A DNA stretch of 5,990 nt, taken from positions 1 through 5,990 of IMG/VR virus record IMGVR_UViG_2529292747_000021. One strand, given 5' to 3'. Below are positions 5,418 to 5,990 of this stretch, one piece after another. Source of the stretch: a virus (lineage: Duplodnaviria > Heunggongvirae > Uroviricota > Caudoviricetes). The translations under genes were made by a program, and so were the position numbers. Each line of letters starts with the position of its first letter. The stretch's first letter is position 1. The notes under the pieces are model-generated. The model was not told the origin of the DNA and did no database searches. It was given only the letters and a program-made list of their open reading frames with translations.

Positions 5418-5752
5418 TTTATCCTCCATTAAGGGCTGAATTAAAAATGGAGACCAACACGCTGCTACGTGTGGTCGTGCGCCGGACACAGATAAGAATC
5501 CGGCACTGACAGTTTACTGAAAGGATATATCCCTGAAAAGTCAGGGCATAACACGAAAGTGCACGGCGAAGTCCTTCTCCCTTAGAGCCGTCGTTAAATT
5601 TAATTCGACCGTGCGCTTCCGGTTGTGGCAATCCGCGAAATGGCGCGGCGGTAAGTATGGCGGGGTTATTCTTTCCCCGTTGAGGACACCGGGTTGTCAG
5701 GTTGACCATACGCTTAAGTGACAACCCCGCTGCAACGCCCTCTGTTATCAAT

Positions 5753-5805
5753 ATTCTGGTGACATTTGGCGGTATCAGTTTTACTCCGTAACTGCTCTGC
5801 CGCCC
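5753..5805 (+). ncRNA. dicF: DicF small RNA (cell-division-inhibiting sRNA of the dicB operon), prophage copy
   Basis: ATTCTGGTGACATTTGGCGGTATCAGTTTTACTCCGTAACTGCTCTGCCGCCC is near-identical to the 53-nt DicF sequence of E. coli K-12 as I recall it (TTTCTGGTGACGTTTGGCGGTATCAGTTTTACTCCGTGACTGCTCTGCCGCCC). It is followed by a T6 run. It sits downstream of ydfA/ydfB-like genes, as in the Qin dicB operon. Confidence 0.8.
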
Positions 5806-5811
5806 TTTTTT
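5767..5811 (+). terminator. Rho-independent terminator forming the DicF 3' end
   Basis: GGCGG (5767-5771) pairs with CCGCC (5800-5804) around an internal CAGTT/AACTG stem, followed by TTTTTT at 5806-5811. Confidence 0.7.
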
Positions 5812-5816
5812 AAAAG

Positions 5817-5973
5817 TGAATTTTGTGATGCGGTGAATGCGGCTCAGCGCACGCGGAACAGTTAAATCGGTAAAGCGGTCATTTGCTGAGTAACGAGAAT
5901 GCTCTGTATCCGGCGTTAATTGTTAACTGGTTAACGTCACCTGGAGGCACCAGGCACCGCATCACAAAATTCA
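5817..5973. repeat. 19-bp perfect inverted repeat flanking a 119-bp spacer, immediately downstream of DicF
   Basis: TGAATTTTGTGATGCGGTG at 5817-5835 is the exact reverse complement of CACCGCATCACAAAATTCA at 5955-5973. The spacer contains GTTAAT/GTTAAC/GTTAAC hexamers (5915-5935) and a CCTGG...CCAGG hairpin (5941-5954). Confidence 0.7.
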
Positions 5974-5990
5974 TTGTTGAGGACGCGATA

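Follow-up and report, generated by a model that had tools for sequence, protein, structure and literature searches.

A perfect inverted repeat lies between the small RNA DicF and the gene dicB in the DNA analyzed here, and the question that it raises is whether it serves as a processing site in the operon transcript, as a gate on the downstream gene, or as something unrelated to the transcript altogether. The whole stretch analyzed, referred to below as the window, comprises 5,990 nucleotides (positions 1 to 5,990 of IMG/VR virus record IMGVR_UViG_2529292747_000021). The sequence belongs to a lambdoid prophage of E. coli O157:H7 with a dicBF operon; positions 5740 to 5990 are 100% identical to a lambdoid prophage record of E. 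coli O157:H7. In the O157:H7 record, a dicA-like repressor is followed in order by relB/relE, ydfA, ydfB, a hypothetical gene, a gap, dicB, a DUF1482 (ydfD-like) gene, an exonuclease gene, and an integrase gene. The relB/relE-parE type II toxin-antitoxin pair (window positions ∼3604 to 4082; L001 3865-4343), between the dicA-like repressor and ydfA, is absent at the equivalent position of K-12 Qin.

The neighbor of the repeat is a member of the DicF family, with a score of 76.9 bits against a gathering score of 48 (Rfam RF00039), and a U tract at 5806 to 5811 completes the DicF intrinsic terminator. This DicF allele carries three substitutions relative to K-12 (at 5753, 5764, and 5790), two of which are inside the mature RNA. 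On the other side of the repeat, the original prediction had placed a gene start at about 5991, following a GAGGA at 5979 to 5983. Annotation of the identical O157:H7 record bore this out, in that the dicB ATG corresponds to position 5991, just past the window edge. The DicB protein encoded downstream of the window (L001 6252-6440) is only 53% identical to K-12 DicB. The features discussed below are as follows.

5754 to 5805, + strand: DicF small RNA (Rfam RF00039, full length, model positions 1 to 52)
5815 to 5835, + strand: P1 5' strand, containing the perfect 19-mer at 5817 to 5835; putative RNase III cut at 5826/5827
5839 to 5854, + strand: hairpin P2, with 5839-5843 pairing with 5849-5854 (RNAalifold on alignment A2, and MFE fold)
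5855 to 5911, + strand: P3, with three closing pairs (5855-5857 with 5909-5911) around a hypervariable arm at 5858 to 5908
5912 to 5938, + strand: hairpin P4, a 10-bp stem with the loop GUUAACU at 5922 to 5928
5940 to 5954, + strand: hairpin P5, CCUGG-AGGCA-CCAGG, which abuts the P1 3' strand
5955 to 5975, + strand: P1 3' strand, containing the perfect 19-mer at 5955 to 5973; predicted partner RNase III cut at 5965/5966
5979 to 5990, + strand: dicB ribosome-binding region (GAGGA at 5979-5983 plus spacer; RefSeq annotation of the O157:H7 record)

The repeat itself was examined by direct reading and by a repeat search. The left arm (5817-5835, TGAATTTTGTGATGCGGTG) and the right arm (5955-5973, CACCGCATCACAAAATTCA) are exact 19-nt reverse complements that enclose 119 nt (5836-5954), as originally described. 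The repeat search lengthened the inverted repeat to 24 nt with 92% complementarity (5812-5835 with 5955-5978), and as RNA the helix comprises 21 contiguous pairs (5815-5835 with 5955-5975), counting A5815-U5975 and G5816.U5974. When the whole window was searched for the arm with up to 3 mismatches, only the two arm sites matched; 0.01 matches were expected from 200 shuffles, and none of the 200 shuffled windows gave two. The proposed folding of 5806 to 5990 (185 nt) formed the long helix and gave −73.3 kcal/mol, compared to a shuffled mean of −48.6 (z = −5.65), with 0 of 200 shuffles folding as well as the native sequence. The duplex of the two arms alone accounted for −33.1 kcal/mol. The inverted repeat is thus confirmed as real and is far beyond chance.

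The 119-nt interior is not a plain loop. The MFE fold and RNAalifold both gave four further helices, P2 to P5, and the inverted repeat is the closing helix (P1) of a structured RNA module of ∼160 nt that follows the DicF terminator and precedes the dicB ribosome-binding site. The conserved, multihelix nature of the interior had gone unnoticed in the first reading of the sequence. P2 is almost invariant in sequence. The closing pairs of P3 show compensatory changes (RNAalifold pairs 61-63 with 123-125), P4 is paired in 97.9% of alignment cells with 5 pairs changed on both sides, and its loop GUUAACU is invariant across lineages. P5 is paired in 99.6% of cells, and in 9 sequences a U-A pair has become G-C. 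The P3 arm (5858-5908) has been swapped for at least four unrelated sequences of differing length among otherwise near-identical modules, and the K-12 version of this arm is an unrelated sequence that is 9 nt shorter; this variation looks like cassette-style replacement or relaxed constraint.

Conservation of the helix was examined first against K-12, the comparison that had been proposed for this repeat, and then across independently sampled loci. The 251 nt around the helix are ∼90% identical to the K-12 locus, and K-12 Qin keeps the same helix with one C-to-U change per arm, both of which turn a G-C pair into G.U. Sampling that was independent of the arms, in which loci were picked by their DicF pattern, yielded 48 unique downstream sequences. 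In 42 of these the predicted long-range helix is 21 to 22 bp, and in 46 it is 15 bp or longer; the exceptions are one degenerate copy and Salmonella, which has no module. Since the mononucleotide-shuffle control for this measure was noisy (2 of 48 shuffles reached 18 to 21 bp, with a permissive helix count), we relied instead on counts of covariation.

Across 57 distinct long-stem variants, 15 of the 21 P1 pairs are changed on both sides, and 96.9% of P1 cells are paired; because sequences entered the alignment for their long stems, the percentage is inflated, but the compensatory changes are unaffected. Sliding the partner strand by 1 to 3 columns reduced P1 pairing to 36 to 48%, and RNAalifold, unaided, recovered 18 of the 21 P1 pairs. 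One sequence (L117) has a C-G to U-A replacement in P1, with the U.G state present in other sequences. The L160 lineage has a perfect 20- to 22-bp helix (ACAGACCTTGCAATGCAGTG/CACTGCATTGCAAGGTCTGT) that differs from the window helix at eight paired positions, and other lineages likewise have perfect helices of 20 to 22 bp of different sequence. P1 contains 102 G.U cells, and the 96.9% pairing obtained for the + strand RNA drops to 89.3% when the helix is read from the − strand. Pairing would therefore be lower if the opposite strand were the transcript, which argues that selection acts on the + strand RNA. The finding that would have counted against a paired function, arms that vary independently, was not what this alignment showed; the arms are conserved together, with compensatory changes.

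Next, the role of the helix in RNA processing was considered. Substrates of E. coli RNase III were taken to have about two helical turns (at least 20 bp) of largely uninterrupted double-stranded RNA, and the closing helix, with 21 contiguous pairs (19 Watson-Crick), is of this length. In K-12, RNase III makes a 72-nt DicF from the full-length dicBF mRNA (Faubladier, Cam and Bouche 1990, as cited in PMC5069750 and PMC9438474). The MG1655 dicF gene occupies 1649382 to 1649434, and counting 72 nt from its 5' end leads to a 3' end just after UGAAUUUUGU. Ten nucleotides of the 19-nt left arm precede this 3' end, which falls midway along the 21-bp helix and is equivalent to 5826/5827 in the window; its placement is by arithmetic from sizes quoted secondhand and is good to about ±2 nt. 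A transcriptome-wide survey of RNase III lists an RNase III-dependent location at 1649470, between dicF and dicB, and marks it as known (Gordon 2017, PMC5371410, Table S1). The signal is weak (0 and 0 reads in the wild type versus 26 in the rnc mutant), and the location, at a resolution of tens of nucleotides, falls inside the module, 8 nt past the left arm. Because the end of the 72-nt DicF and the 1649470 location map to the helix or its module, the helix is taken to be the RNase III substrate.

The best explanation, to which we assign a probability of roughly 75%, is that the repeat is P1 of an STnc100-like module in the dicBF read-through RNA and that it is an RNase III substrate yielding a longer DicF. 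The idea that the hairpin gives DicF an alternative 3' end through RNase III had been part of the original prediction, and it is supported by the 72-nt size, the 1649470 location, and the covariation. RNase III dependence and product size are taken from the K-12 orthologue, through papers that cite the original work, while the helix, its conservation, and its covariation come from the present analysis. The exact cuts in the window allele, the cut on the 3' strand, and the effect on dicB expression are what we infer from these.

According to this explanation, P1 would lie in the read-through dicBF transcript and, because it presents about two turns of double-stranded RNA, would be cut by RNase III. 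A cut on the 5' strand near 5826/5827 would give the longer isoform of DicF, with a length of 72 nt in K-12 and an expected ∼74 nt here because the U/A tract of the window allele is 2 nt longer than that of K-12. RNase III makes staggered cuts that leave a 2-nt 3' overhang, and the partner cut is predicted on that basis at 5965/5966. Such a cut would detach a dicB-ydfD mRNA that starts with AAAAUUCAUUGUUGAGGACGCGAUAAUG and carries a short, 5'-monophosphorylated leader of 25 nt. For DicB synthesis, the result might be either unmasking of the Shine-Dalgarno (SD) sequence or faster decay of the detached mRNA.

For this operon, a cut by RNase III upstream of DicF is better documented; it creates the 5' end of a 190-nt species (PMC10448788). 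The biogenesis of DicF is RNase III dependent in that study, which documents the dependence at the upstream site and mentions no downstream cut (Ragunathan 2023, PMC10448788). The published upstream cut for the 190-nt precursor should fall near window position 5617. A strong local hairpin (CGGGUUGUCA...UGACAACCCCG) is present upstream of DicF at 5691 to 5730, and the fold of 5540 to 5760 was not significantly better than that of shuffled sequences (z = −1.7).

A second reading is that the helix acts mainly as a translational gate, keeping the dicB ribosome-binding region in or near stable structure and so limiting synthesis of toxic DicB from read-through RNA, with RNase III cleavage either incidental or merely the release step. 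We regard this as possible but tentative; it and the RNase III substrate explanation are compatible and could both hold. GAGGA begins 4 nt after the end of the helix, and in the MFE fold the U tract of the DicF terminator pairs with UUGAGGA. The predicted probability that the SD is unpaired is 0.09 to 0.12 in the uncut RNA versus 0.80 in the predicted 3' cleavage product, and related long-stem modules occur 15 to 50 nt upstream of other genes that are toxic or encode small membrane proteins, namely kilR, the kil gene of Stx phages, and small hydrophobic ORFs. However, the outer helix between the DicF U tract and the dicB SD contains three G.U pairs and is weak; only 65% of its cells are paired, and its conservation does not extend beyond the dicB type, so that as a structure in its own right it is at most suggested by the fold. 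In addition, the kil-type loci have an SD that is further from the helix, and after cleavage a weak hairpin is predicted to pair the AUG, which would offset the opening of the SD. The thermodynamic prediction of whether cleavage activates dicB translation is ambiguous, with the SD predicted to open and the AUG to close.

To place the module among known RNAs, it was compared with Rfam. At a relaxed threshold, 5819 to 5968 matched STnc100 (RF02076) at model positions 21 to 154 of 206 (33.6 bits, E = 8.5e-6). The gathering score of that family is 47 bits, and full membership in RF02076 was therefore rejected; the copies of the module linked to dicB, kil, and tciA scored 34 to 44 bits. The cmscan alignment nonetheless places P1, the P4-like hairpin, and P5 correctly, with P5 at model positions 127 to 141 and the closing helix of the STnc100 model on the inner part of the repeat. 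P2 pairs were flagged as noncanonical against the STnc100 model; RNAalifold independently gave P1 to P5. STnc100 and PasD are expressed, Northern-validated, Hfq-associated prophage sRNAs, and canonical STnc100 copies have their own terminators, closing helices of 6 to 10 bp, and often a tandem arrangement beside tRNA genes. Units above the gathering score were seen at L208 4349-5513, L171 1702-2340, L146 2265-3380, and L196 6983-7660, and the tandem arrays have a period of ∼253 nt. The window module is not a stand-alone sRNA with an intrinsic terminator of its own, since the dicB SD follows 4 nt after the helix. In evolutionary terms, it is probably a terminator-less, operon-internal relative of STnc100/PasD whose closing helix, 6 to 10 bp in that family, was lengthened to RNase III length.

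This kinship raises a third reading, in which RNase III would cut both strands of P1, as at the 16S and 23S rRNA stems, to free an Hfq-binding, STnc100-like core of ∼140 nt. The core is homologous to STnc100/PasD, and its invariant loops (GUUAACU and AGGCA) on covarying stems are as expected for functional single-stranded sites. The K-12 data nevertheless run the other way: coverage of the module is 0 in the wild type versus 26 in the rnc mutant, the opposite of what a stable excised product would give. Moreover, what RIL-seq-based sRNA discovery annotated at the Rac locus was KilS, which lies upstream of the module, rather than the module itself, and the module is without the terminator hairpin or U tail for Hfq binding. 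We therefore consider excision of a functional sRNA unlikely.

Much less probable still is a feature of the DNA (a cruciform or protein-binding palindrome) or of the minus strand (an antisense RNA or the 31-amino-acid ORF at 5879 to 5974). The palindromic layout could in principle extrude a cruciform and the ORF does exist, but the G.U wobbles pair better on the + strand (96.9% versus 89.3%), and the ORF varies in length from 12 to more than 57 amino acids and has no start in 17 of 57 variants; as a coding sequence it was rejected because it is not conserved. Scans of 5500 to 5990 found no promoter-like site on either strand. The simple terminator scan likewise found no terminator-like site, although it also misses the DicF terminator because of the large loop of the latter. 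The P1 3' strand is followed by UUGUUGAGGA rather than directly by a U run, and an intrinsic terminator or attenuator was rejected for want of a GC-rich hairpin followed directly by such a run. A tRNA- or tmRNA-like element, an idea that came from the T-arm-like position of P5 and from the tRNA genes beside the P1/P7 and canonical copies, was rejected when ARAGORN found no cloverleaf in 5600 to 5990.

The last reading, a miniature mobile element with terminal inverted repeats, had been raised in the original prediction and could draw on the perfect 19-bp repeats around a short noncoding interior and on the several phage contexts of the module, but it is hardly credible and was rejected: no target-site duplication flanks 5817 and 5973 (AAAAG and TTGTT are partly complementary and are not direct repeats), no transposase or dispersed copies were found, the arm variation is G.U compatible or compensatory and so indicates selection on RNA pairing, and all 155 complete left-arm occurrences in viral contigs have their partner arm 101 to 124 nt downstream. 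These occurrences share a single syntenic slot ahead of DicB, Kil, or one other recurrent ORF, and no contig has more than one copy, so that they are not scattered across unrelated loci.

The distribution of the module beyond dicB was also examined. BLAST against phage genomes found it, without DicF, in several places. It precedes kil by ∼20 nt in Shigella phage 75/02 Stx and kilR by ∼20 nt in Rac-SA53 and vB_EcoS-666R9; in P7 and D6, where it sits among tRNA genes, it precedes tciA/terB; and it also occurs in a Klebsiella phage. All of these copies scored 34 to 44 bits against RF02076. The tciA copies of phages P1/P7 have a short stem. In the Rac prophage of MG1655, the annotated sRNA KilS (b4833) is followed by the module and then by kilR (L306, NC_000913.3 1418201-1419000, − strand, ∼30-302). 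KilS shares the DicF terminator hairpin and is followed by the module and kilR; DicF-module-dicB and KilS-module-kilR are therefore paralogous triads. The module is unannotated in MG1655 at both loci.

Long closing helices (at least 15 contiguous bp, or 27 to 30 bp with one or two defects) were found only in operon-internal copies. These lie upstream of dicB or kil; in other lineages, they follow a cI/DicA-like repressor and precede small hydrophobic ORFs and a ydfD-like gene. In a minority of loci, comprising two viral contigs (L056, oriented 7780-8631, and L258) and six more, a 283-amino-acid ORF (MLNVAIENQNGW...) of odd-looking composition lies between the module and kil. A DicF-pattern scan of genome contigs yielded 8 loci, including one in Salmonella enterica (CP191473.1; L005, − strand), where DicF (3644-3695, 60.6 bits) has no module after it. 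It is followed by a 54-amino-acid ORF that starts 14 nt past the terminator and then by a Kil homologue with its own strong SD. Since Salmonella has DicF and a kil homologue without the module, the module is dispensable for DicF and kil expression as such.

A broader and more speculative proposal, which we think doubtful on present evidence, is that the long-stem module may be a portable leader cassette for a "kil slot" in the early operons of temperate phages, silencing toxins until RNase III cleavage. The host-killing or division-inhibitor genes that would have the cassette directly upstream are dicB, kilR, the kil gene of Stx phages, those for small hydrophobic peptides, and, with a short stem, tciA of phages P1/P7. 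If the proposal is true, cleavage would license translation of the toxin mRNA or trigger its decay and would also free an extended DicF or KilS isoform together with an STnc100-like RNA. It would tie a widespread orphan sRNA family to RNase III-gated prophage toxicity.

The processing site as such is already explained, because later papers relay that RNase III cutting immediately downstream of DicF was mapped in K-12 in 1990. For a DicF processing step that is quoted in the literature only by the size of its product, the repeat supplies the structural explanation. Three points appear to be undescribed in the literature searched: P1 closes a module that covaries and resembles STnc100/PasD; kilR, kil, and tciA are all preceded by this cassette; and helices of RNase III length are specific to the operon-internal copies. 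The kinship of the module to the STnc100/PasD prophage RNAs may be new. Cell division, sugar uptake, and, in EHEC, the expression of virulence genes are under the control of DicF and DicB, and several dicF/dicB loci are present in O157:H7. Once the helix and its predicted cuts are known, mutagenesis can directly test the 72/74-nt isoform and the 5' end of dicB. The restriction of RNase III-length helices to operon copies ahead of toxic genes provides a hypothesis for one role of the STnc100/PasD family, which extends to how prophages restrain kil-type genes.

Among known systems, the K-12 dicBF mRNA (ydfABC-dicF-dicB-ydfD) is closest to the window, as the orthologous locus with the same helix and, from the sizes quoted for it, a 72-nt DicF end in the 5' strand. 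The window differs in that its 19-mer is fully Watson-Crick where K-12 has two G.U pairs, and in its 2-nt-longer U/A tract, its different variable arm, and its 53% identical DicB. The RNase III sites of the lambda early-left RNA (N leader and sib) and the rRNA stems likewise consist of a long helix in a polycistronic RNA cut by RNase III. Cutting at those sites separates functional RNAs or alters expression of the adjacent gene. The 16S and 23S rRNA stems further resemble P1 in being built from sequences that flank a structured RNA. None of these lambda and rRNA sites is related to P1 in sequence, and the N leader and sib sites are simple hairpins with internal loops.

STnc100 and PasD share with the module an xxUGGUG...CACCAxx closing helix, a GAAU junction, a P4-like hairpin, a CCxGGAGGCACCxGG hairpin abutting the 3' strand, and an occurrence in lambdoid prophages. 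Unlike them, the module has no terminator (model positions 155 to 206 are absent), is operon internal in the early-left region directly upstream of a protein gene rather than in the late region or in tRNA arrays, and has a closing helix of 21 bp rather than 6 to 10 bp. Finally, the KilS-kilR locus of Rac (PMC8175672) has the same layout as the window: a DicF-like sRNA with its terminator, the same module, and a gene for an FtsZ inhibitor ∼20 nt downstream. The kil-type 3' strand differs by a U.G pair and a bulged A, the protein encoded downstream shows no relationship to DicB, and the RNase III location reported there by Gordon (1418510) is at the KilS 5' end and not in the helix.
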